Assembly: GCA_046563655.1 (NCBI GenBank)
Contig: CM102283.1
Location: 9,362,001 to 9,426,000 of the forward strand
DNA from: Yuukianura sp. NJ FZ-2021
Lineage: Eukaryota
Length of the DNA stretch: 64,000 nt
Direction of reading: 5' to 3'
Positions 13,959-57,296 of the stretch are shown one piece after another (position 1 is the stretch's first letter; every line of letters begins with the position of its first letter). The notes below the pieces were generated by a model. It searched no databases, was not told the DNA's origin, and worked only from the letters and a program-made list of their open reading frames with translations. Position numbers and translations under genes: made by a program.

Positions 13959-15109
<1,151 letters not shown>

Positions 15110-15708: not shown

Positions 15709-17277
15709 ATGCAGATCACACTGAGAACGCTGCAACAGCAAAATTTCCAAATTGAAATTGACCCGGATCAAACGGTAAATCTCAATCAACTCTGTAAACA
15801 GCTGATACTCTTTTTTCAGTGAATAGGTTGACTAAAGTTTTGATTTGTATGTTGATAGGTGGAAGATCTGAAACAGAAAATTGAAGAGTCTCGGGGAAAG
15901 GATTACCCTGTTGGTAGTCAGCGACTAATTTATGCTGGAAAGATCCTTGAAGACAAAACGAAAATAGGTGATTGTCAAATTGAGGATTCCAAGTTTGTGG
16001 TAGTCATGGTCACGAAGCCCAAACCAACTACTGCTGCCACGTCTCCTGCACCACCGACTCCTGCTGCAGTACCGACTCCAACTCCACCACCAGCAGCTGC
16101 TGCTGCTACTGCGCAATCACAACCAACGCCTAGTACTCCGGCACCAGCGGGGTAACCTTAAGTTTCAACTATTGTATCATCACATGCCTTACCTTCATTG
16201 CTTTGTGATTTTCAGCGCTGCTCCGCTTGGAGATTTGTTGTCGGGTCCTGCCTTTGATGCCGCCGTGGCATCAATCATGGCGATGGGCTACGAACGGCCA
16301 TTAGTTGAACAAGCCTTGCGAGCCTCCTTCAATAATCCCGAACGAGCAGTTGAATATCTTCTTATGGGTATTCCAGATGAACTGATTCAGGTAATTGCCT
16401 TCTCCCTTAATCAGTAATCGTTCTTTTAATCGTAATTTAAAGAGAATGTTATGTTTAGGAGGATGCTGCCGGTGGTGCGGAGGTTGCAGCGGGCGGTGGT
16501 GTTGAGGGCAGTGCTGATTCGGCCAGTAACTCCTTAGCTTTTCTTCGGTCCCAGCCTCAATTTGAACAGATGAGAGCCGTGGTTCGACAAAGCCCACAGC
16601 TTCTCAACGCAGTCTTACAACAAATCGGTCAATCAAATCCAGCTTTACTGCAAATCATTACTGAAAATCAGGTACACTTATCATAGGAAGTTATCAACGC
16701 TGACGATTAGTAAAATTTTTAATTGGTGATGGATTTCTAGGAAGAATTTGTTCGTCTTTTGAACGAGGATTCAAGTGGTAGCAGTACAGGAGGAAGCGGA
16801 ACTCCAGTGGCAGGTCAAACTCCTGGTGGCGCTTTCCAGATTCAAATCACGACTCAAGACAAGGAGGCCATTGAAAGAGTTAGCAAATCTTACAAATTAC
16901 TAACATAATTCAACAACCGGACATAACTAATCTAATATGTTATCTAACTATCCGATTTTGTTATCTAGTTACAGATAACATACTAGGATAGTAGCACAAT
17001 AGGACCGATAGCATAATCGGATAGGTGGATACCATTGTTATCTAAAACTACCGATTATGGCATCTAACTATCCCACTATGTTATCTTGCTATCCCATTAT
17101 GCTAATATCTAACTATCCCATTATGTTATCTAACCGGATATGTTATCTTTGTGTCGTTTGCAGTTGAAAGGACTTGGATTTCCTGAGCACCTTGTCGTTC
17201 AAGCCTACTTTGCTTGTGAGAAGAATGAAAACATGGCGGCCAACTTTCTTATCCAGAACGGATTTGATGATGACTGA
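15709..17277 (+). CDS. Rad23: UV excision repair protein Rad23 (UBL-UBA-STI1-UBA), 6 coding exons
   Basis: [21 protein letters not shown]...[10 protein letters not shown]...[13 protein letters not shown]1: IMAMGYER...[24 protein letters not shown]-binding region: [10 protein letters not shown]...IGQSNP. UBA2: [29 protein letters not shown]. Confidence 0.97.
16935..17148. repeat. Degenerate ~21-bp minisatellite with an internal inversion in the last Rad23 intron
   Basis: Units like ATGTTATCTAACTATCCCATT recur, with reverse-complement units (GATAACAT, GATAGCATAATCGGATAG) at ~16973-17025. Confidence 0.6.
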
Positions 17278-22354: not shown

Positions 22355-24644
22355 TCACTTTCCCCGCGGCGGAAGTTTGTTGAGTTTGAATGATTTTGCG
22401 GAAGTGCTGGGCATGGCTTTGGACAGCGGGCTGAAATGGTCACTAGTTCCTGAACTACTGGAACTTTTGCGACGTACTCTTCCATCGTCAGAGTTTGTGT
22501 TTTGGGTTGTCTTGAGAGGAGAATACTTGTTAGGGGAATTAAAAACGGAACTGGATGGGGAAGATGACGATGACGAAGGAGGTGTCGGTATCGGCGAATC
22601 GGTACCTGTACCGGGATGATTCGGGAGTGACGAAGTTCCATTTGATTGGCCAGCGTTGAAACCGTTTCGAACAGGAACAGCTGATGCTGAAGAAATTCGG
22701 CTTTTGGGGGGATCGTAACCCAGTGGAGGGTTTCGTCTTGTTGAAGAAGGAATTGGCGCTCGGACTTTCGAAGATGTCGGAACACGGATCGTAGTGTTAC
22801 AGGCATCAGTTGGGTCAAAGTTTCGTGAAACTGCGGGTTGGTAATTGGTTGGTGGAAAACTTTTGAGTGGATCTTCATCATGTCTATACATTTGTTGAGG
22901 AAGAGGAGGAGGTTGATGATGACGAGGAGGAGGTCGATGATGGGAGAGGAGGAGGAGGTTGATAATGATGAGGAGGAGGAGGCTGATGTTGATGATGAGG
23001 AGGAGGTTGATGTAGATGATGAGGAGGAGGAGTTATGTGTCGGAAGTTTTGCACTTGCGGACTTGTTGGTCGAAACCCACTCGGTATCCTTGGTTGTGGA
23101 GGGGGACTTTGAAAATTCCGGTAGTATTCCTGAGAATTAGTATTGAATCGCGGCGGACTTTGAAGACGAACAATTCGTGGTTGGTTTTGAACTTGATGCT
23201 CCATCGGATTCGGATACCCCGGAGGTCTGGAAGCAGTTTGCGCCGAATTGGGTAACCGCTGCTGCTGCTGGTGAAAATCATTTGGATGTGAACTTCTCGG
23301 ACGCTGTTGACTCGGAGGTTGTTTTGGGTACGGGGCAAAACGGACGTTTGTTCTTGATGTTGAAGATTCCGAACTACCTTGAAAGTTCGTCGTCGTCATG
23401 TCAATGTCGGAGTCGCTCGGGTGGAGTTGATGCTGATTGGGAGGCAAATCCTGTTCATGATGCTGATTCGGAGGCAAACGCTGTTGCTGATGCTGATTCG
23501 GAGGTAAATTCTGTTGCTGATGCTGATCCGGAGGCAAATGCTGTTGCTGATGCTGCTCCTGAGGCAAATGCTGCTGATGTTGTTCTTGATGTTCGGGAAG
23601 AGACGAGTAGTGAATCATTTCCGACTTAACGTCAACGGAACCGTTCTGGTGGTCTGTCGGAGTACGTTCTTGTTTGTGTTCCGCGGGAGGTTTAAAACCT
23701 GGGCGTGTCCTGGATCCAGGTCCCGGAAACGGCAAATATTCAACATCATTTTCCACTTTATGCTGAACAGCACCCCACTCCATGTCAAACTTGAGCTCTT
23801 GAACTTCGTCCTCATCCGGCTCTTCATCAGCCACATCGTCTAGGTTCACTTCCTTCGCGTAGTTTCTTGTAATCATAGCAGATTTGTTGAGTAAGGATTT
23901 AAAATTGTCTTCTGTGTAGTTAATGGGGGAACTTGGGTCATCTATGACCTCCAGTATGAAGCTGACTTCTTTAAAATCTTCTACCATTTCGACCGTTTTG
24001 CAGTTCCCTAAGAATATCTTCAACTTCTCCAAAGTTCTTTTAGATTTTTTCAATCCACTGAGTGCCGATTGATCTCCACAGGTAAGAGGCTGCTCCCGAT
24101 CGCAATTGCCAGCTCGGTATGCAGATCCAAAACTTGTGTTATTAGTTCCCCCCTAAATCAATCAAGGAACATTATAAGTAATCCCGCACATTGAGAAGTA
24201 ATTGACTAATTAATCAAGGTAAACTTACCCAATCGAAGTCGGCAGTTCCTTTGCCACATGTGAACTTATACTCTCGACTCAAGTCCTTTCCACGCGAACT
24301 ACTACCACCTATTGAAACTTAAGAAGTTAGTTAACTTAATCACGTTTCCTATTGTGTGTTTTCTCACCGTCCCAGGAGAAGTTGGACGTTCCTTTACACA
24401 ACGAGGCCGTCCAAGAGCCAGAGCCCCTTCCAACCCCGAGTTTTGTGTCCTTAAAATCATGTCCAGAGTTCCGTGGCCCCTCTGTTGACCTCCCCTCTCC
24501 TTCTGCTAAATGTGACGAAAGTGGAGCAGTTCCTGCATCGCCGTCACCATTACAGTACTGCGTATTTATGCCTAAATCGTATCCGAAGTCCCGAACTCCA
24601 TCGTTGTCATGAGACATTGGGCGGCCACGACCCCGGGCACTCAT
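22355..24644 (-). CDS. Uncharacterised low-complexity (Q/H/P/S-rich) protein, 3 coding exons, with an apparent frameshift near 22945
   Basis: Exons ~24368-24644, ~24229-24308 and ~24153 onward splice in frame into the 22884-24053 ORF. The HHxQPPP repeat continues in a shifted frame into ORF 22355-22891. Confidence 0.6.
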
Positions 24645-25239
24645 GTCACTTATTTGCTGCTTCACTAATTTCCAGTTCTCATGTCAAAGTGAAACGGTTC
24701 GTCGCGATGATAAATTGGTCCATCTTTAAAAAATCAAACATTAAGATTAAATTAGCCAGAATTCCATTATGTAAGTGTTAATAATACGACTCACCGATGC
24801 TGGTCAGAATGTAACTACTTCCTGGATAAACTCGATTAGTCTAAATAGACAAGTTTACTTAACTATCGTTTTATTCGTCTTTCCTCCAAACTAATCGACT
24901 AATCTAATTAAATTGATATTGAGGCGAGGGTAAAAGAAAAATATCACATTCGCGCCCTTCAACTGATGTGATAAACAAAATTCAAATGTAGCGGGCTTTG
25001 ATAAGTTTATAATAAAAATGCGTCTCTTCTTTGGTAAGTAAGTCCGTGTAATTTATGTTTTGTTTTAGTAACCTTAGTCATTAGTTTACAGTTACAAGTT
25101 AACATAACGGCATTAAATTAACTTTAACAATTACAGAGGATAAGATCCAGTCACAAAAGACAGATCAGGAGATGAGTTGACGCAGCATCTTTTGCTATTC
25201 GCCTACTTGTAACATTTTTCTTTTATAGTGGAACCAGAG

Positions 25240-26254
25240 ATGAAAATTCTTGACCTATTGACCTTTGAACTAATAAAGATTGTGGTGCTAGCGGAAGCGG
25301 TAAAGGTTCCCGGAAGAAACGCTAAACTAATTGGTGGCATAGATTCTGAAGTAGAAGAGTTTCCATGGATGGTCTCTCTCCAGAAAATGTCGCCGGAGAC
25401 AAAAACGTTTGTTCATTTCTGTGGCAGTGGGACCATATTTGATGAAGAATCGGTTGTCACCGTGGCCCACTGCGTCCATGACAAGCATCCTGAAGAACTT
25501 CGCATTCTCGCTGGAAGTTTGATTTCAGCGATACGAAACGGTGACGACAATCAACACTGGAGAAACGTCACCAGTATTCGGCTTCATCCAAATTACACAA
25601 CGTAACCAAATATTCTAAAAATAGAAGTTGGACATCATTTATTACAACGTTTTTATAACGTTATAAGGAAAGGGATCACTCCTGGACAGAATGACATCGC
25701 CTTGTTGACAGTCCACCCACCGTTGACCTTTGGCCGGAACGTCAACGCTATCAAACTACCAGATCCAGGAATGTCTCCCGCCAATTTTTCTTGCTGCGTG
25801 ACCATGGGCTGGGGCAACACTTTTCCAATTGCTTCACTCTTGTTTTCCAGAGATCCAATTCTACAAAAGGTCAAGACAGAGGTCATACCCAGCATCTACT
25901 GTAAACTGGCTTACCCGTTCTTACTTCCACAACTGACGAATACAATCTGCGCCAGTAGTGGCTTGTACTATGGACCATGCAATCATAGAGTAACCATGAC
26001 GATTCGATTTTTTTTCTTTTAACAAGTTAAAAGAAAAAAAAATCGAATCGTCATGGTTACTCTAAGCATGCAATGGTGACTCTGGAAATCCACTTGTCTG
26101 TTATAGCAATGGTACTCCTTATGTCCTTGGCCTGGGATCGTGGGGCTGGGTCATCTGCGGAGACGGAGTCCATCCGGACGTTTACACCAATATTAACCTT
26201 GTCCATGATTTATGGAACGCTACAATTACAAACCTTAATCAAAAAGTTAATTAA
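25240..26254 (+). CDS. Trypsin/chymotrypsin-like serine protease (S1A), interrupted by a MITE just before the catalytic Ser
   Basis: Signal-like MKILDLL..., activation site K|LIGG, FPWMVSLQ, TVAHC (His), NDIALL (Asp), GDSGNP (Ser) and GLGSWG. Intron at 25602-25667. Confidence 0.85.
25984..26066. mobile_element. 83-bp palindromic MITE/foldback with 8-bp TSD CATGCAAT (25976-25983 and 26067-26074), hAT-like
   Basis: Arms TAGAGTAACCATGACGATTCGA(T8)CTTTTAAC and GTTAAAAG(A9)TCGAATCGTCATGGTTACTCTA flank a 2-nt loop. Removing the element plus one TSD restores GPCNGDSGNP exactly. Confidence 0.9.
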
Positions 26255-26891
26255 ATTTTTTAAATAATTTACACAAGTTATTCATCAAAAAGGAAATGTT
26301 GATGCCCATACACGAAAATTAGGAAGAGGATGGTGAGGGTGTTATGCAGGAGCTGCTAGCCTTGCCGGCTTATTGCATCAAAATATTGGTTGAAACAGAC
26401 TTTATGGCTAACGTTGTATCCACGCGCAAAATTCAAAAATCTGAAATTGTCATTGTACTCCCAGGTTAGAGTTAGGGTATGAATGCCCAAAGATAGCTCA
26501 GAGGTTCAGTACAAATTCGGGTTTTTTTAATTTTCCGCTTGGAATTTGCCGATTGCCGCTTAGAATTTATCCCTGTTGTACCCGGGTCCAACAATAACGG
26601 GGGGTACAATTATTCGGTATAAAGTTTACTTCAACCAAAATACATGACAGACAAGAAGATTAGAAAGGAAAGAGAAACAGATAAACAGAGACGAGGTCAA
26701 CGGGGAACGTGTGTACGTGACTTCTGGATTCACATAAAACACGACGACAAGAACTTTCGAGCTTAGTAATCAGTGACAGTCAATTAGTAATTGGATTTTG
26801 GAGTGGAGTAAACGAGTAAAGTACGTACCTATTAATTGAATTTGAAACCTATACCGAATAGATCAACTTATTTTGTGTTTTAGAACGGAAC

Positions 26892-30701: not shown

Positions 30702-31860
30702 GTAGGAAAATCACTCTTTCTAAATAGCATAATTCCAAATTCCAAAAAGTTAAAAGTTTAGTAGGAAAATCACTTTCTAAATAGCATAAATTCCAAATTC
30801 CAAAAAGTTGAAAGTTTAGTAGGAAAATCACTCTTTCTAAATAGCATAATTCCAAATTCCAAAAAGTTAAAAGTTTAGTAGGAAAATCACTCTTTCTAAA
30901 TAGCATAATTCCAAATTCCAAAAAGTTAAAAGTTTAGTAGGAAAATCACTCTTTCTAAATAGCATAATTCCAAATTCCAAAAAGTTAAAAGTTTAGTAGG
31001 AAAATCACTCTTTCTAAATAGCATAAATTCCAAATTCCAAAAAGTTGAAAGTTTAGTAGGAAAATCACTCTTTCTAAATAGCATAATTCCAAATTTCAAA
31101 AAGTTAAAAGTTTAGTAGGAAAATCACTCTTTTCAAATAGCATAATTCCAAATTCCAAAAAGTTAAAAGTTTAGTAGGAAAATCACTCTTTCTAAATAGC
31201 ATAATTCCAAATTCCAAAAAGTTAAAAGTTTAGTAGGAAAATCACTCTTTCTAAATAGCATAATTCCAAATTTCAAAAAGTTAAAAGTTTAGTAGGAAAA
31301 TCACTCTTTCTAAATAGCATAATTCCAAATTCCAAAAAGTTAAAAGTTTAGTAGGAAAATCCCTCTTTTCAAATAGCATAATTCCAAATTCCAAAAAGTT
31401 AAAAGTTTAGTAGGAAAATCACTCTTTCTAAATAGCATAATTCCAAATTTCAAAAAGTTAAAAGTTTAGTAGGAAAATCACTCTTTCTAAATAGCATAAT
31501 TCCAAATTCCAAAAAGTTAAAAGTTTAGTAGGAAAATCCCTCTTTTCAAATAATATAATTCCAAATTCCAAAAAGTTAAAAGTTTAGTAGGAAAATCACT
31601 CTTTCTAAATAGCATAATTCCAAATTCCAAAAAGTTAAAAGTTTAGTAGGAAAATCCCTCTTTTCAAATAATATAATTCCAAATTTCAAAACGTTAAACA
31701 TTTAGTAGGAAAATCACTCTTTTTAAATCACATAATTTCAAATTTCAAAACGTTAAAAATTTAGTAGGAAAATCACTCTTTTTAAATAATATAATTCCAA
31801 ATTTCAAAACGTTAAACATTTAGTAGGAAAATCACTCTCTCTAAATAACATGATTCCAAA
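30702..31860. repeat. 59-bp tandem satellite array, ~19-20 copies
   Basis: Unit GTAGGAAAATCACTCTTTCTAAATAGCATAATTCCAAATTCCAAAAAGTTAAAAGTTTA is repeated head-to-tail with no spacers; the right-hand copies are more diverged. Confidence 0.97.
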
Positions 31861-47792: not shown

Positions 47793-49254
47793 TTAGTTGC
47801 TATGACGATTCGATTTTTTGGGCGTTGCTCTACCAGAAAATTGCGCCTGAGTCGTCTCTTGATGGTTGCAATTTGGATCGATCGTTGAAACACGTCTGCG
47901 CAGAAGTTGTTGCGAGGCAGCCAGAATGAGTTGACTAAAGTTTCTATCTCTCTCGATGTCGCCAGTCGCCAGTACTTCGCTTTCAATTGATTCCAGTGTC
48001 GGTGGTCCACCATCGCTTAAACTTCCATCGCTGATTCCTCCAGGCACTGGCTCAATGTTGACCGACATTAACAATTCTCCGTCTTGCTCGAAATGTTGCA
48101 ACCAAGAGTCCGGTCCACCGAAACAAAGTCCGTCTCGGATTATAGCCGGTCCGGTGATCCGGATGGGGTAGACCGGTCCACGCCATTCCAGTGACATAGT
48201 CTATTCAAAAACATTCAAAATTTCAAAAAAGTTAAAAAATTCTGAAAAATTTCAAAAATTTTGAACCTTTGGACTGTGAAATTTGACGGAGGCGGTAAAA
48301 TTGAATCTTTCGGTCAATTCGGCTTTCGGACAGTGGACCCACACCCATGTCCAGAAAAACGGACGGATGATTTCCAGCATGACGTAGAACGTACAGCCAT
48401 AAGCCATGATGTAATATGGAAGCCACTTTCGATCTAAACAGAGTTAAATATAATATAATTAATATAATTTAATTAATTAATTAAGATAATTAATTAACCT
48501 CTGATTGGACATTCATTGTCCGTGACGTAGTGAATGATCACTGGCAATTCAGTTGTGCCGCCTATTTTGTGGTTTTCTTTCAAGTGGCTCAGGAGTGACC
48601 GGTAGCCGACGGTAAGTGAGCAAGATGGAACGAGGCATTTGATCATTCTAAAATTTTGAAAAATGAAATTTTGCAAAATTTTGAACTTTTGAAATTTCGA
48701 AATTTACCTGTAAGGACATGAACCTTCATGTGGTTGCATGTTGTCTCCCTTCCATCTAAGAAATTTGCACCCATCTTTGGAAAACTTGCAACTTTGGGAG
48801 TACTGCTCGATGAAATTTTCAGCAAAGAGATTCCGGACAGTGGAAAATGGCTCGCGACATGTCGGACACACGGTGACATTGCGGCGACATCGACTGCAAA
48901 TGATGTGGCCATTGACACATGTAATGGGCGACACGCATGTGTTGAAACAAACTAAAAAACACAATTTTAAAACACAAACTAGGAAAATTATAGTATTTTT
49001 TAGAGTTTTTTTTGAAAACCTGGACATTCCAGCTCCTTCAAAACGACTTCCAAGTTTTTCAGTTTTGTTTCAATTGACGGTGTGATTTGGTTCAAACCTT
49101 TCTTTTTCTTTTTCCTAAACAAAAAGTTTTAAAAAAGTTAACTTTTTTGAAAATCAGATTCAAGTTACGAGGTCAGTGACCCCAAGACTTACACAAGATC
49201 GACCTTGTTTCTGCGTCTTCCTCCACAACAACAACCGAACATTCGAAACCGCAT
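47793..49254 (-). CDS. Siah/SINA-like RING E3 ligase, ~6 coding exons
   Basis: ELECP|VCFNTCVSPITCVNGHIICSRCRRNVTVCPTCREPFSTVRNLFAE is a Siah-type RING. It is followed by zinc fingers (CKFSKDGC...HEGSCPYR; CLVPSC...HLKENH) and a SINA-like C-terminal LEWRGPVYPIR...RDGLCF. Confidence 0.85.
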
Positions 49255-49952: not shown

Positions 49953-52900
49953 ATGAGGCAGTGCATTTTGATTTCAATTTTATATACTTTGTGTTTGGTC
50001 TCTTGCGTTCACAGTTCTACAGACCAATCACAAGTCGTTGTTAGTAATTTGCGTCAAGCATTTTTGGATTGTTCTGCGAAATGCTCACGAGATGCCAACT
50101 GTGTTGGAATTGTCATTTACAAAAAAATTGGTTTGAAATTTGAAATTAAAAATGACAATTACTACTGTCGAACGGAAACAACAAACGAAATTTCACTGGC
50201 CGAAGATTTCAACGAAAGTCATCCAGCCATTGTCTACAAAATTATTTTCAAAGGGAAGTCAATCCAAGATATTCAAAAAATTCGCCAACGAGCGTCTTCC
50301 ATTCGGAGCAGACGCGAAGCAGAAGAAGAAACGAACACCATAACGGAATTCAATGCTCTCAATGTTGCAAAAGATCAACTGATTCACAATCACACTGCGA
50401 AACATGAAAAAACGGCACAAGCGAACTTAACTGTCGAAGGTGCTAGCACTTCAGGTAATTCGAAATATTGGTTGGTGGGAGTTAGGTGTAAATGATGACA
50501 TATTTTTTTTTTGCGTTGACTGTTGAATTGCTAGGTTTCGCTGGAGTGTTCGGTGGGAATGTGACCAACGCGAGTGTCAGCGTCCAAAACATGATAGCTT
50601 CTGGAAATGGATCTTCAGTGTCAAACGGAGTAGGAATTCGGGCGGAAAGTGGATCAGCCCCCTCAGAAGCCTCATTGACAGCATCTACCCCGTTAGAGAC
50701 GACAGACGTTCCACCTACAGAATCTACCCCGTTAGAATTAACATCAGCAGAGTTGACACTCTCAGACGTTCCAGCTACAGAATCAACCCCTACAGAAGTT
50801 CCAGCTACAGAATCTGCTGCTTCAGAAATTCCAGCTACAGAATCTACCCCTACAGAAGTTACAGCTACAGAAACTGCTCCTTCAGAAGTTGCAGCAACTG
50901 AATCTACCCCTGCAGAAATTCCAGCTACAGAATCTGCTCCTTCAGAAGTTCCAGCTACAGAACCTACCGCTACAGAAGTTCCAGCAACTGAATCCACCCT
51001 TACAGAAATTTCAGCCACAAAATCTGCTCCTTCAGAAGTTCCAGCAACTGAATCTACCCCTACAGAAGTTCCAGCAACTGAATCCACCCTTACAGAAGTT
51101 CCAGCCACAGAATCTGCTCCTTCAGAAGTTCCAGCAACTGAATCCACCCTTACAGAAGTTCCAGCAACTGAATCCACCCTTACAGAAGTTCCAGCAACAG
51201 AATCTGCTCCTTCAGAAGTTCCAGCAACTGAATCCAGCCTTACAGACGTTCCAGCAACAGAATCTGCTTCTTCAGAAGTTCCAGCAACTGAATCTACCCT
51301 TACAGAAGTTCCAGCAACTGAATCTACCCTTACAGAAATTCCAGCAACTGAATCCACTCTTACAGAAATTCCAGCCACAGAATCTGCTCCTTCAGAAGTT
51401 CCAGCAACTGAATCTACTCCTACAGAAATTCCAGCAACTGAATCCACCCTTACAGAAATTCCAGCCACAGAATCTGCTCCTTCAGAAGTTCCAGCAACTG
51501 AATCCACCCTTACAGAAGTTCCAGCAACTGAATCCACCCTTACAGAAATTCCAGCCACAGAATCTGCTCCTTCAGAAGTTCCAGCTACAGAATCTACCCC
51601 TACAGAAGTTGCAGCACCTGAATCCACCCTTACAGAAGTTGCAGCCACAGAATCTACTTCTACAGAAGTTCCAGCAACTGAATCTACCCTTACAGAAGTT
51701 CCAGCTACAGAATCTGCTGCTTCAGAAATTCCAGCAACTGAATCTACCCTTACAGAAGTTCCAGCAACTGAATCTACCCTTACAGAAGTTCCAGCCACAG
51801 AATCTGCTGCTTCAGAAATTCCAGCAACTGAATCTACCCTTACAGAAGTTCCAGCCACGGAATCTGCTGCTTCAGAAGTTCCCGCTACAGAAGCTGCTGC
51901 TTCAGAAGTTCCTGCTACAGAATCTGCTGCTTCAGAAGTTCCAGCAACTGAATCTACCCTTACAGAAGTTCCAGCCACGGAATCTGCTGCTTCAGAAGTT
52001 CCAGCTACAGAATCTGCTCCTTCAGAAGTTCCAGCAACAGAATCTGCTCCTTCAGAATTTCCAGCAACTGAATCTACCCTTACAGAAGTTCCAGCCACAG
52101 AATCTGCTGCTTCAGAAGTTCCAGCAACTGAATCTACCCTTACAGAAGTTCCAGCCACAGAATCTGCTGCTTCAGAAGTTCCAGCAACTGAATCTACTCC
52201 TTCGGAAGTTCCAGCTACAGAATCTGCTGCTTCAGAAGTTCCAGCTACAGAATCTGCTCCTTCAGAAGTTGCAGCAACTGAATCCACCCCTGCAGAAGTT
52301 CCAACAACAGAACCTATCGCTACGGAAGTTCCAGCCACGGAATCTGCTGCTTCGGAAGTTCCAGCTACAGAATCTGCTGCTTCAGAAGTTCCAGCAACTG
52401 AATCTAACTTTACAGAAGTTCCAGCCACAGAATCTGCTCCTTCAGAAGTTCCAGATACAGAATCTACTTCTACAGAAGTTCCAGCAACTGAATCTAGCCT
52501 CACAGAAGTTCCAGCCACAGAATCTGCTGCTTCAGAAGTTCCCGCTACAGAAGCTGCTGCTTCAGAAGTTCCAGCTACAGAATCTGCTCCTTCAGAAGTT
52601 CCAGCAACAGAACCTACCGCTACAGAAGTTCCAGCCACGGAATCTGCTGCTTCTGAAGTTCCAGCTACAGAATCTGCTGCTTCAGAAGTTCCAGCAACTG
52701 AATCTAACCTTACAGAAGTTCCAGCCACAGAATCTGCTCCTTCAGAAGTTCCAGCAACTGAATCCACCCTTACAGAAGTTCCAGCCACAGAATCTGCTGC
52801 TTCAGAAGTTCCCGCTACAGAAGCTGCTGCTTCAGAAGTTCCAGCTACAGAATCTGCTCCTTCAGAAGTTGCAGCAACTGAATCCACCCCTGCAGAAGTT

Positions 52901-54876
52901 CCAACAACAGAACCTATCGCTACGGAAGTTCCAGCCACGGAATCTGCTGCTTCAGAAGTTCCAGCTACAGAATCTGCTGCTTCAGAAGTTCCAGCAACTG
53001 AATCTACCCTTACAGAAGTTCCAGCCACAGAATCTGCTGCTTCAGAAATTCCAGCAACTGAATCTACCCCTACAGAAGTTCCAGCAACTGAATCTACCCT
53101 TACAGAAGTTCCAGCCACAGAATCTGCTCCTTCAGAAGTTCCAGCCACAGAATCTGCTGCTTCAGAAATTCCAGCAACTGAATCTACCCCTACAGAAGTT
53201 CCAGCAACTGAATCTACCCTTACAGAAGTTCCAGCCACGGAATCTGCTGCTTCAGAAATTCCAGCAACTGAATCTACCCTTACAGAAGTTCCAGCCACAG
53301 AATCTGCTCCTTCAGAAGTTCCAGCAACTGAATCTACCCTTACAGAAGTTCCAGCAACTGAATCTACCCTTACAGAAGTTCCAGCAACTGAATCTACCCT
53401 TACAGAAGTTCCAGCAACTGAATCTACCCTTACAGAAGTTCCAGCAACAGAATCTGCTCCTTCAGAAGTTCCAGCAACTGAATCTACACTTACAGAAGTT
53501 CCAGCCACAGAATCTGCTCCTTCAGAAGTTCCAGCTACAGAACATAACCCTCCAGCTACTGAATCCACCCCCTCAGAATTACCAGCAACAGAATCAGTAA
53601 CTGAAGCAGTGTTTTCTACAGTAGAAACAATTACAGAAATGCCAATTATCCCCACCCCATCATTTCCCGAATTGAGTACCGTAGAAACCATTACAGAGGT
53701 GCCAATTATCCCCACCCCTGCAGTTCCAGAATTGAGTACCGTAGAAACCATTACAGAGGTGCCAATTATCCCCACCCCTGCAGTTCCGGAATTGAGTACC
53801 GTAGAAACCATTACAGAGGTGCCAATTATCCCCAGCCCTGCAGTTCCGGAATTGAGTACCGTAGAAACCATTACTGAATCCCCCTCCATCATTGTCAACG
53901 TTGACCAGATTAATGCTACCGAAGTTCCCCACCTCCAGGCGGGAACCAGCACAGAAATCGCATTAGAACTCCCGCCAAATTCATCTGCAACTGAATCTTC
54001 TGCAGAGATTCATCACTCCGAAAGTCACGTGATGGCTGACCCTGGTTGTGTTTTTGAAGATGAAGAGATGTTCCGTAGAAACATAAGGGCAGGAACTTAT
54101 GCCGTGTTGGATGGCAATCCTGTCCTGCTGACCTTTGTCAACAATTCGGATTGTGTTGCGTCTTATGCAAAAAGTGGGCGTAAAAGTGGGTTGCACAGTT
54201 TGAGAAAATTATTTCCAGAGTTTCCGTTTGATGCACAAGTAGACGCAGCAGGATTTTTTAACAACAGTTTATACCTCATTGACTCAACCGAAGGTACAAC
54301 GAGTAGTTGAAAATTTGTATTTTCAAAATTTGAAAATTTCCTGATTTTACTTTTTGTTCTTTTAGCTCAAAATGTTCATGTATACGAGTACAACCCTATG
54401 ACAAACACGTACAAGCTTTCCAGCGTCATGACTCGAGGCGATTTTCTGGATCAAAACTGCGGAATGTCGCTGAAATCTGATCGGAGGATTAAAGCTCTTG
54501 CACAACTTTCGAGCACTGCTAGAAGTTGCATTATTTTCGATGGGTACAATATTTAACCAATTTGGCAAATTTGAATTCAAAAACATTTTTTTCAAAGTTT
54601 TGTTAAATTTTTAGACACAAAGAACCAATTGTTTCTCCGTTGGCATCAGAAGAAGAAATTAGCCTTGCAAAGTCCATCAATTTTGCATTGAGTGAAGAAT
54701 TTGTGTTATATGCTGAAGCCATTTTTTCATGGCTGGATGAAGCGCCGCTGATTTCAACTGTTTACGTTTTTGGCAGCAATGGAGAACTCTACGCAGTCTC
54801 AAAAGATTTAACGAAAGGAGCCTCTTGGCTTCCCGGCAATTTCAAAAATATTCCTTACGAATCTTTTCCAAACTAA
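49953..54876 (+). CDS. Large secreted mucin-like protein: signal peptide, PAN/apple-like Cys domain, T/S/E/P repeat stalk, hemopexin-like C-terminus; exons 49953-50454, 50535-54293, 54366-54543, 54615-54876
   Basis: In-frame GT-AG joins; LDCSAKCSRDANCVGI...YYCR; RSRR furin-type site; EVPATESAPS/EVPATESTLT repeats; LFPEFPFDAQVDAAGFFNNSLYLI resembles a hemopexin blade. Confidence 0.8.
50705..53595 (+). repeat. 30-bp coding tandem repeat, roughly 95 units (10-aa EVPATESxxx)
   Basis: Unit of the type TACAGAAGTTCCAGCAACTGAATCTACCCT / TTCAGAAGTTCCAGCTACAGAATCTGCTCC stays column-aligned in the 60-nt lines. Confidence 0.97.
53612..53880 (+). repeat. 60-bp coding tandem repeat (~4.5 units, STVETITEVPIIPTPAVPEL)
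   Basis: Near-identical 60-nt lines at 53641-53880. Confidence 0.93.
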
Positions 54877-55403: not shown

Positions 55404-57296
55404 ATGATCAAGTGTGAACTGTCCTTGTTGACACTTTTGCTGTCGACTTGTTTTCTGGGTGAGTCCAAAACACTAAATTTCTTGTTTTGGAAACTTGTTT
55501 AAAAGTAATACGACCTTGGGTTTTAATTGAAGTGACAAACGAATTGGAGCAATGGCTGCCCTTGAACACATACAAAGTCCACACAGATCCGAATCATACC
55601 AAGCCAGACAAAATTTCAGCTGGAAATTTATTCGCTTGGCTCAATTTGAAAAATAGCATCAAATTCAGACTATGGACCAGGTAAGGATTTTCGAAATTTT
55701 GAAAATTTTCAAAAAATGGTTTTCCGTTTGAAAATTTTTTTGCATGTGAATTGAAATTTAGTGCAAATCAATCCAAAACAAACCAGTTTTCAAACTGATT
55801 TTTTTTTGTGAGTGTCAATTAAAATTGGTAATGGCAATCAATTAATTTCAACTTTTATGAGTTGACCTTGGTAAAATTGCATGTATTTAGCAATGAAATA
55901 TTTCATTCCCTTATGAATTATGACTAAAATTACGAAATTTTGATAGAATTTTTAAAAACTTGGCCGATGTTGAAAAATTTTGAAATCCTTTCAGGTTAAA
56001 TCCGCACTTGGCCCAGGAAATCAAGTACAAAGATGCAGAAACTCTGAAAACGAGCAACTTCGATCCGCGCAGACTCACTAAAGTGATAATCCACGGATTC
56101 GCTGACAGTGCCACGGAAGCAGGCGTCACTCCTTATTTATTTCACATGCGTGATGCTTATCTGCACTTAGGAGATGTGAATGTGCTGATCATGGACTATG
56201 CTTTGTTCAGTCTGCCTGTGTTCTACTACGCTGCTGCCCCGGATTTGCCTGGAGTTCGGTTAGCCGAGTTCCTGGAATTCCTTCTGACGGAGTCTCCCGA
56301 TTTAAGTCCAAGGTCAATCCACTTGATTGGATTTAGTTTAGGAGCACAGGTTGCAGGGTTAGCTGGGCATAGATTGAAAGGTCAACTGGGCAGAATCACG
56401 GGACTTGACCCGGCAGGACCAACTTTTCATTATGTGTCGAATGACCTGAGACTGGACCGTTCAGACGCACAATTTGTGGACATAATTCACACTTCTTCGG
56501 GCAAAAAGTTCTGGAGCCAAATTCATCTTGGAATTGACGAAGCTCTGGGGCACGCGGACTTTTATCCGAACAACGGCACACACCAGATTGGTTGTGTCAA
56601 ACCAAAAATCTTCAATTTTAGTTACAAAAGTAAGTCTAACATACAAATATTAGTTTTTAAAAAGTTTTTTTTTTGAAATTTTGACTTTTTGAAATTTTGT
56701 GACAGATTTGGAGTGTAGTCATGGAAGATCTGCTAGATACTTTATAGAATCAATTACATCGCCTCTGGCCTTTCCTGCTGTGAGGTGTTCGTCATTCAAA
56801 AATTTTGTGGCGGGAGATTGCAGTTGCAGCAAAATTCGCACTGAAGACATTCCATTTATGGGGGAACATTTGAACCATGCGTAAAATCCAAAATTTTTAA
56901 AATTTGAAACAAAATCAAAATTTTTTAACTTTTTGTTGATGTTTTTGTGAATTCAGAACTCGTGGGATTTTTCAACTTGTGACGAGAACGCAAAAACCGT
57001 TCGGTCTTGGCCCTCCAATGAACATTCAGCTTCCAAATGTCACTCCAGCACTGAACAAACGATTGGGTGACCTCATTGACCCCCGGAGGGCAATTCAAAA
57101 TCAAAATTTTTCAAAATTTGAAAGTCATGAAGCTACAGTAACGTTCAACAAAACAAAAATGCAATTGGAGTTCAAAAACACGTACAACGCCCTGGACCCG
57201 CCGAACGACGACGTTGCCAAACTGTGTCTTGGTTTACTCTATGCAAATAATTCTACAATTAACGGAAAATATTTACAATTACAATATTTATGTTGA
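55404..57296 (+). CDS. Pancreatic lipase-like / phospholipase A1 family protein, 5 coding exons
   Basis: Signal MIKCELSLLTLLLSTCFL; TKVIIHGF; IHLIGFSLGAQVAG (Ser); ITGLDPAGP (Asp); RLDRSDAQFVDIIHTS; GHADFYPNNG..QIGC; CSHGRS (His). Confidence 0.92.

Follow-up and report, generated by a model that had tools for sequence, protein, structure and literature searches.

Does a transposable element that lands in a coding exon simply destroy the gene, or can it leave the transcript as a newborn intron? This question is raised by a trypsin-family protease gene of Yuukianura sp. NJ FZ-2021, whose last coding exon is interrupted by a palindromic element ending in AG. An initial annotation of the DNA had offered both answers, intron gain in progress or a fresh knockout allele. 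We analysed the 64,000-nucleotide stretch that contains the gene (hereafter the window) and compared positions 24800-26700 with four public DNA runs, X1 to X4. The reading that we favour, with a probability of roughly 85%, is a very recent and polymorphic loss-of-function allele, produced by insertion of a miniature inverted-repeat transposable element (MITE) into a single-copy S1 (trypsin-fold) protease gene.

The protease gene lies on the forward strand. Its first coding exon (25240-25601) runs from the first ATG, the putative start, within an open frame at 25213-25605; it carries the activation site K/LIGG and the catalytic histidine (TVAHC) and matches positions 2-81 of the Pfam Trypsin profile PF00089 (E 6e-11, 43 bits). 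The 66-nt intron that follows (25602-25667; donor AAC/GTAACC, acceptor TTATAAG/G) was placed there because the frame continues across it and the profile matches run from 2-81 to 86-169. The last exon upstream of the insertion (25668-25983, within the open frame 25606..26022) contains the catalytic aspartate (NDIALL), matches profile positions 86-169 (E 2e-10, 41.2 bits) and ends in ...YYGPCN, which includes the left copy of the target site duplication (TSD). The rest of the last exon (26067-26254) encodes CNGDSGNPLV... with the catalytic serine; its open frame (26066..26254) reads ACNGDSGNPLV... up to the stop codon at 26252-26254, and it matches profile positions 175-217 (E 8e-8, 32.9 bits). 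All three pieces score above the curated Pfam Trypsin cut-off of 20.6 bits and together span positions 2-217 of the 220-position profile, and the AHC, NDIAL and GDSG motifs are all present in the translations. Profile score and His, Asp and Ser motifs thus place the product in peptidase family S1. The annotated intactness of the gene, catalytic triad included, was borne out by these matches, and apart from the insertion the gene looks whole. The window contains no paralogue of the protease. A homologue search with the exon-2 piece against longer proteins returned 71 candidates, none with E <= 0.001, which carries little weight as evidence.

Several features surround the gene. Just upstream, on the reverse strand, lies a 422-aa open frame rich in Gln/His/Pro repeats (22887-24152) that had no match in Pfam, and a search of the ESM Atlas with a neighbouring 291-aa open frame gave no usable match. 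Directly downstream of the gene, a second multi-copy repeat at 26595-26636 reached a depth of 840-1150, compared with about 135-230 nearby. This region contains a small inverted repeat, TTGTACCC...GGGTACAA, and a joint from 26503 to 26601, of the 'opposite strands' type, was present in X1, X2 and X4. At ~30747-31641, BLAST matches followed each other at a regular 59-nt spacing, which suggests a tandem repeat of about 15 units of ~59 bp. A very long repetitive stretch at 50485-54307 has open frames in both directions (forward strand 1272 aa, reverse strand 1175 aa). Its match to Extensin_1 is below threshold (78 bits, cut-off 105), and it is probably a gene for a low-complexity repeat protein. 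Among named proteins, those closest to a lipase open frame nearby come from the springtail Allacma fusca (60%, 57% and 46% identity); numerous others from arthropods and molluscs follow with identities of about 40-45%.

The insertion point lies between the Cys-Asn and the Gly-Asp-Ser of the active-site serine motif. The element itself, a palindromic, non-autonomous MITE without strand assignment, occupies 25984-26066, with arms at 25984-26022 and 26027-26066 and a 4-nt loop. At 83 bp it is short and has no room for a gene. Exact 8-bp copies of CATGCAAT (repeat family D4) abut both termini, the left one at 25976-25983 and the right one at 26067-26074. A repeat search recovered the 83 nt between the TSD copies as a near-perfect palindrome (inverted repeat I1), which stood out as the one strong case in a list of 12 inverted-repeat pairs from the 64-kb window, and a pattern made of the 24 terminal nucleotides matched the two arms and no other place in the 64 kb (chance expectation 0). 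By itself the 83-mer was predicted to fold into a stem of 37 base pairs closed by a 4-nt loop (-49.5 kcal/mol). When 24 nt of flanking sequence were included at either end (25960-26090), the predicted fold reached -59.7 kcal/mol (z = -11.2), and none of 200 shuffled sequences was as stable. Repeat search and folding hence agree with everything that had been described of an 83-bp near-perfect hairpin with an 8-bp TSD. The further description of one substitution as the only difference between the arms needs correction. There is indeed a single substitution among the 37 paired positions, an A at 26065 in place of the T expected from the left arm, but the arms are also unequal in a homopolymer run (8 T versus 9 A, giving a 1-nt bulge), and the central 4-6 nt of the palindrome are not symmetric.

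No Rfam family was found at its gathering threshold; the best match was MIR7504 with 60.5 bits against a threshold of 83, and the sub-threshold matches fell on both strands and belonged to unrelated plant and animal families. We rejected an identity as a known miRNA precursor, since sub-threshold matches on both strands reflect a generic hairpin effect. At 47802-47819, next to a separate A/T-rich hairpin, 18 nt are identical to a subterminal stretch of the arm (ATGACGATTCGATTTTTT; BLAST E 7e-5). The bases around them agree poorly with the element, and these 18 nt may be left over from a related one.

Public DNA contigs contain the site without the element. A contig of 1060 nt from X1 (depth 135.6) joins 25975 directly to 26067 and thereby skips exactly 91 nt, and it shows no other letter over the 1060 nt of flank that it covers (25106-25975 and 26067-26256). 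The same joint from 25975 to 26067 was found in a contig from X2 (depth 182.4). In both, 8 letters at the joint fit either side, and a single copy of CATGCAAT remains. X1 and X2 come from one sample of one study and count as one independent observation. Such contigs demonstrate the presence of a sequence and say nothing of its absence or of allele frequencies, and X3, from another study and labelled as organism B, has no cover flanking the site. An allele with a precise empty site, which the initial annotation had proposed to look for, thus exists as DNA on an otherwise identical haplotype, and the 83 bp with one TSD copy are an insertion and not ancestral sequence. Because this haplotype lacks the element and is otherwise the same, the insertion is recent and either polymorphic or heterozygous. 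Another X1 contig (depth 69), whose shorter side has only 30 letters, connects 25135 with 26194 through 37 unrelated letters. This joint would remove nearly the whole protease gene and could represent a deletion haplotype or an artefact of repeats or paralogues.

The element belongs to a family with many copies. In X1 the summed depth over the element was 11993 and 8730, compared with 135.6 in the flanks (~90x), and the jump in depth over the element was similar in all four runs. Depth serves as a rough guide here and not as a copy number, so we say only that the family has copies on the order of a hundred. Loose contig ends before 25984 and behind 26064 had a consensus agreement of 0.47-0.70, and ends that agree so little point to many copies at different places. 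Excess depth and unrelated flanks, the mark of a dispersed MITE, were seen in four of four runs. The window holds no further copy. Near-full short copies occur in other contigs (X3 record 20 and X4 record 24). In many further copies the likeness is confined to the outermost ~40 nt of each arm, followed inward by a different segment that is itself palindromic; the loose ends that lead into this inner segment, at 26023 and 26025, have an agreement of 0.76-1.0. The 83-mer is hence a short variant of the family, reduced to the terminal inverted repeats (TIRs).

The same loose ends identify the terminus of the family. Behind 26064 they begin with TG in X1 (5 contigs), X3 (2 contigs) and X4 (4 contigs), so the family ends in ...CTCTATG, and the AAG, with its AG, is private to the copy in the protease gene. 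Whether TATG or TAAG ends predominate had been posed as a question, and the answer is TATG, as the comparison of the arms had implied. The private change is a T-to-A substitution at 26065 (+ strand), the second-to-last base of the element, and it creates the terminal AG. We also looked for the family by its sequence in other sources. A full-text literature search for the 12-nt terminus gave two matches, both unrelated and of the primer type, and the single match to a 20-nt piece of the arm in a metagenome scan lay in a GC-rich, bacterial-looking contig (L001), had no similarity beyond the 20 nt and was dismissed as chance.

The superfamily is less certain than the family. The element has the 8-bp TSD of hAT transposons; TSDs of 8 bp are also made by P elements and some Mutator-like elements, which makes their length non-discriminating for hAT. 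Elements of the hAT superfamily tend to have the terminal motif YARNG and TSDs of the pattern nTnnnnAn. The terminus CATAG fits YARNG at four of five positions, and CATGCAAT fits the TSD pattern at position 7 and not at position 2, both comparisons referring to this single site. A Pfam scan of 14 selected open reading frames, and of the 150 with starts at 74-20130 among the 412 listed of at least 55 aa, found nothing like a transposase. By the length of its TSD the element is a candidate member of hAT, and P or another superfamily may fit as well.

What would the insertion do to the transcript? The addition of 91 nt and of a stop codon, as annotated initially, was confirmed from the open reading frames. 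Left unspliced, the upstream frame would read ...GPCNHRVTMTIRFFFF and then meet a premature TAA at 26020-26022 (+ strand; open frame 25606..26022), upstream of the catalytic serine. We propose that a TIR-only 83-bp member of the multi-copy family jumped into the last coding exon and duplicated 8 bp of target. The protein made from an unspliced transcript would end 16 codons after Cys-Asn, before Gly-Asp-Ser; the stop would lie in the last exon, and by the general rule nonsense-mediated decay would not be expected. If, alternatively, the best-looking splice sites were used, a GT at 25990 and the AG at 26066, 77 nt would be removed and the frame shifted. These are the two likeliest fates, and either would mean loss of function. 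The knockout that had been suggested for this locus therefore agrees with the empty site, the multi-copy family and its TATG terminus, while the loss of function is what the altered reading frame predicts. One coincidence is left unexplained by the knockout reading, namely that the private change created a terminal AG and that an in-frame solution with a GC donor and this AG exists.

To judge these splice sites we needed introns of the same genome. Unsupervised intron finding from pairs of open reading frames by expectation maximization converged on noise (the prior went to 0.9 and the matrices became flat), and we replaced it with a set of 11 introns of the window curated by hand from the continuity of Pfam profiles or homologues. 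The set comprises introns of Sad1/UNC, uL5 (two), RAD23 (four), the protease itself and the lipase (three), at 2668-2754, 14303-14359, 14510-14579, 15775-15858, 16152-16215, 16391-16458, 16672-16740, 25602-25667, 55681-55994, 56630-56705 and 56881-56956. All 11 are of the GT-AG type and none has a GC donor. Ten are 57-87 nt long and one has 314 nt. The donors read GTA[A/C] in 10 of the 11 introns, with G at +5 in only 3 and G at -1 in 8. The acceptors are CAG (6), TAG (4) and AAG (1, in the protease's own intron) and are preceded by short pyrimidine tracts. Scored leave-one-out with a position matrix that is crude because it is built from these 11 introns only, the native donors obtained 0.0 to 4.6 bits and the native acceptors -4.1 to 4.3 bits.

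On this scale the two candidate donors are very different. The internal GT (GA/GTAACC, 25990-25995, + strand) scored 3.3 bits, which places it in the top 1.8% of the 7227 GT sites of the window, and still 2.7 bits when the gene's own intron was left out of the matrix. The GC in the left TSD (CAT/GCAATC, 25979-25984, + strand) has a C where all native donors have a T, and its flanks scored 0.3 bits. A weak GC donor and a stronger internal GT had been noted at the outset, and the scores agree. The splice arithmetic was also correct when recomputed. Removal of 25979-26066 takes out 88 nt and leaves an in-frame product, ...YYGPSCNGDSGNPLV, with one extra serine (3 nt), whereas joining the GT at 25990 to the AG at 26066 takes out 77 nt, leaves 14 extra nucleotides and shifts the frame. 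The AG at 26066 is a poor acceptor in either case, with -2.6 bits and 24% of the 7480 AG sites of the window scoring the same or better. The native AAG acceptor of the protease scored -2.1 bits in the leave-one-out test, about as poor, which indicates that weak acceptors can work in this genome. Two other ways of removing the element were considered and rejected. Splicing out precisely these 91 nt would need GT-AG or GC-AG ends, and inspection of the nine equivalent registers found none. The exonic GT donors upstream at 25955 and 25958 would, with the AG at 26066, produce in-frame deletions, but they scored -4.8 and -7.9 bits.

The alternative that survives best is splicing from the GT at 25990 to the AG at 26066, which would yield a frameshifted mRNA and hence a knockout by another mechanism. 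Two of the 11 curated introns, the protease's own and RAD23 intron b, begin with the very hexamer found here, GTAACC; the score of this GT is high for the window, and an intron of 77 nt would lie within the native range. Against this, all six bases of the donor are paired in a 37-bp stem closed by a 4-nt loop, and the acceptor is weak. Binding of U1 to a donor buried in a tight hairpin is usually hindered or blocked, and a long perfect duplex is a potential target of editing or dicing. Judged from these predicted signals, we regard such splicing as rather unlikely, albeit a candidate worth keeping in mind.

Far less probable is the nascent intron, in which the GC donor at 25979 in the left TSD and the private AG at 26066 would give an in-frame GPSCNGDSG mRNA and possibly an active protease. 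If a segregating copy of the MITE were removed in frame in this manner, or by non-canonical removal guided by the hairpin, it would constitute a nascent polymorphic intron of a hexapod, an outcome to which we give very little chance. The reading frame works out, and 88 nt is close to the native 57-87 nt. In the predicted fold the hairpin brings both sites together and leaves the AG unpaired, owing to the private substitution. There is precedent as well in Gozashti et al. 2022 (PMC9860276), parts of which describe introners that bring along a 3′ site while the TSD provides the 5′ one, GC donors and 8-bp TSDs. However, GC donors occur in none of the 11 native introns, the 0.3-bit flank of this one lacks a G at -1, and a much better GT donor lies only 11 nt downstream. 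The acceptor is matched by almost a quarter of the AG sites of the window, and the family, ending in TATG, carries no 3′ splice site. In addition, the protease may not tolerate one more residue beside Cys191 and Gly193, the glycine of the oxyanion hole. Overall, the in silico signals argue against intron gain, which appears unsupported and most unlikely.

An assembly or sequencing artefact, with the palindrome absent from the germ line, would account for the public contigs that span the site without the element and for the fraction of sampled words present in X1 (0.89, a shortfall close to that expected if all words touching the insertion were lost, 113/1071). However, a perfect 8-bp TSD, family-matching termini and a precise empty site are what transposition leaves behind, unlike a fold-back or chimeric read. 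The junction with a high-copy repeat can be lost from De Bruijn contigs, and we give this explanation next to no credence.

How does the element compare with known insertions and introns? Exonic MITE insertions that create null alleles share its features: a short, TIR-only element with a TSD, a multi-copy family, presence and absence of the insertion with a precise empty site, and an interrupted reading frame. We see no essential difference between those and the element described here. An exonic MITE insertion is of a textbook kind already known and in itself not surprising.

Introners are families of transposon-derived introns, some of which have the 3′ splice site on the element and the 5′ site in the TSD, according to parts of PMC9860276 and of a 2024 review, PMC11282704. 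Sections of PMC9860276 list introner families in which 0-50% of the 5′ sites are GC, and its Fig. 2F-G legend describes introners of Aureococcus that have 8-bp TSDs and add 12 nt to the mRNA. Like the element in the protease gene, the Aureococcus introners are DNA elements that lie in coding exons between 8-bp TSDs, and their splicing leaves a few extra in-frame nucleotides (here it would be 3). Unlike it, they bring both canonical splice sites on the element, form many introns and were defined from annotated introns; here a single exonic copy is read as DNA, the consensus terminus has no AG, and the GC donor lies outside the element. Introners with the acceptor at the end of the element and the donor in the TSD (PMC9860276, Fig. 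2B legend, and portions of PMC11282704) have the same geometry as the intron model, but in them the TSD is 4 bp and the arrangement is a feature of the whole family, while here one copy alone has gained the AG, by a private substitution. We do not classify the element as an introner because its family supplies no functional splice sites: the family terminus is ...CTCTATG, and the only in-frame pair needs a GC donor.

Introns with non-canonical ends offer another parallel. Passages of PMC11282704 describe MITE-derived non-canonical introns in Fritillaria borealis and nonconventional introns of euglenids that form hairpins. In these, as in the protease gene, TIRs pair, the ends of the element meet in the RNA and TSDs lie at the borders. 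According to the same passages, those organisms have an altered splicing that accepts non-canonical ends, whereas all 11 curated introns of the window are GT-AG. The nearest parallel in an arthropod is found in Daphnia pulex, where neointrons flanked by direct repeats of 4-12 bp were attributed to double-strand-break repair (Li et al. 2014, PMC4202315); the word 'transposable' is absent from the available text of that paper. These neointrons, too, are polymorphic insertions into exons, with a short stretch of the exon repeated directly at both borders. They are demonstrated introns, while the insert in the protease gene is a recognisable transposon and a candidate intron only.

Filled and empty alleles with identical flanks and a perfect TSD make this locus a clean case of a very young insertion, and the MITE family is active now or was so recently. 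An RNA read without the element may stem from the empty allele, and hence RNA and DNA would be needed from the same genotyped individual to follow the fate of the insertion in the transcript. If transcripts of insertion carriers were spliced in frame, the locus would show an intron arising from a transposon in an animal at a stage when the insertion still segregates, and the single-base change that turned a knockout insertion into an intron would be identifiable. As it stands, the insertion can serve to mark present MITE activity and, by its predicted effect, offers a naturally occurring null allele of one protease gene.
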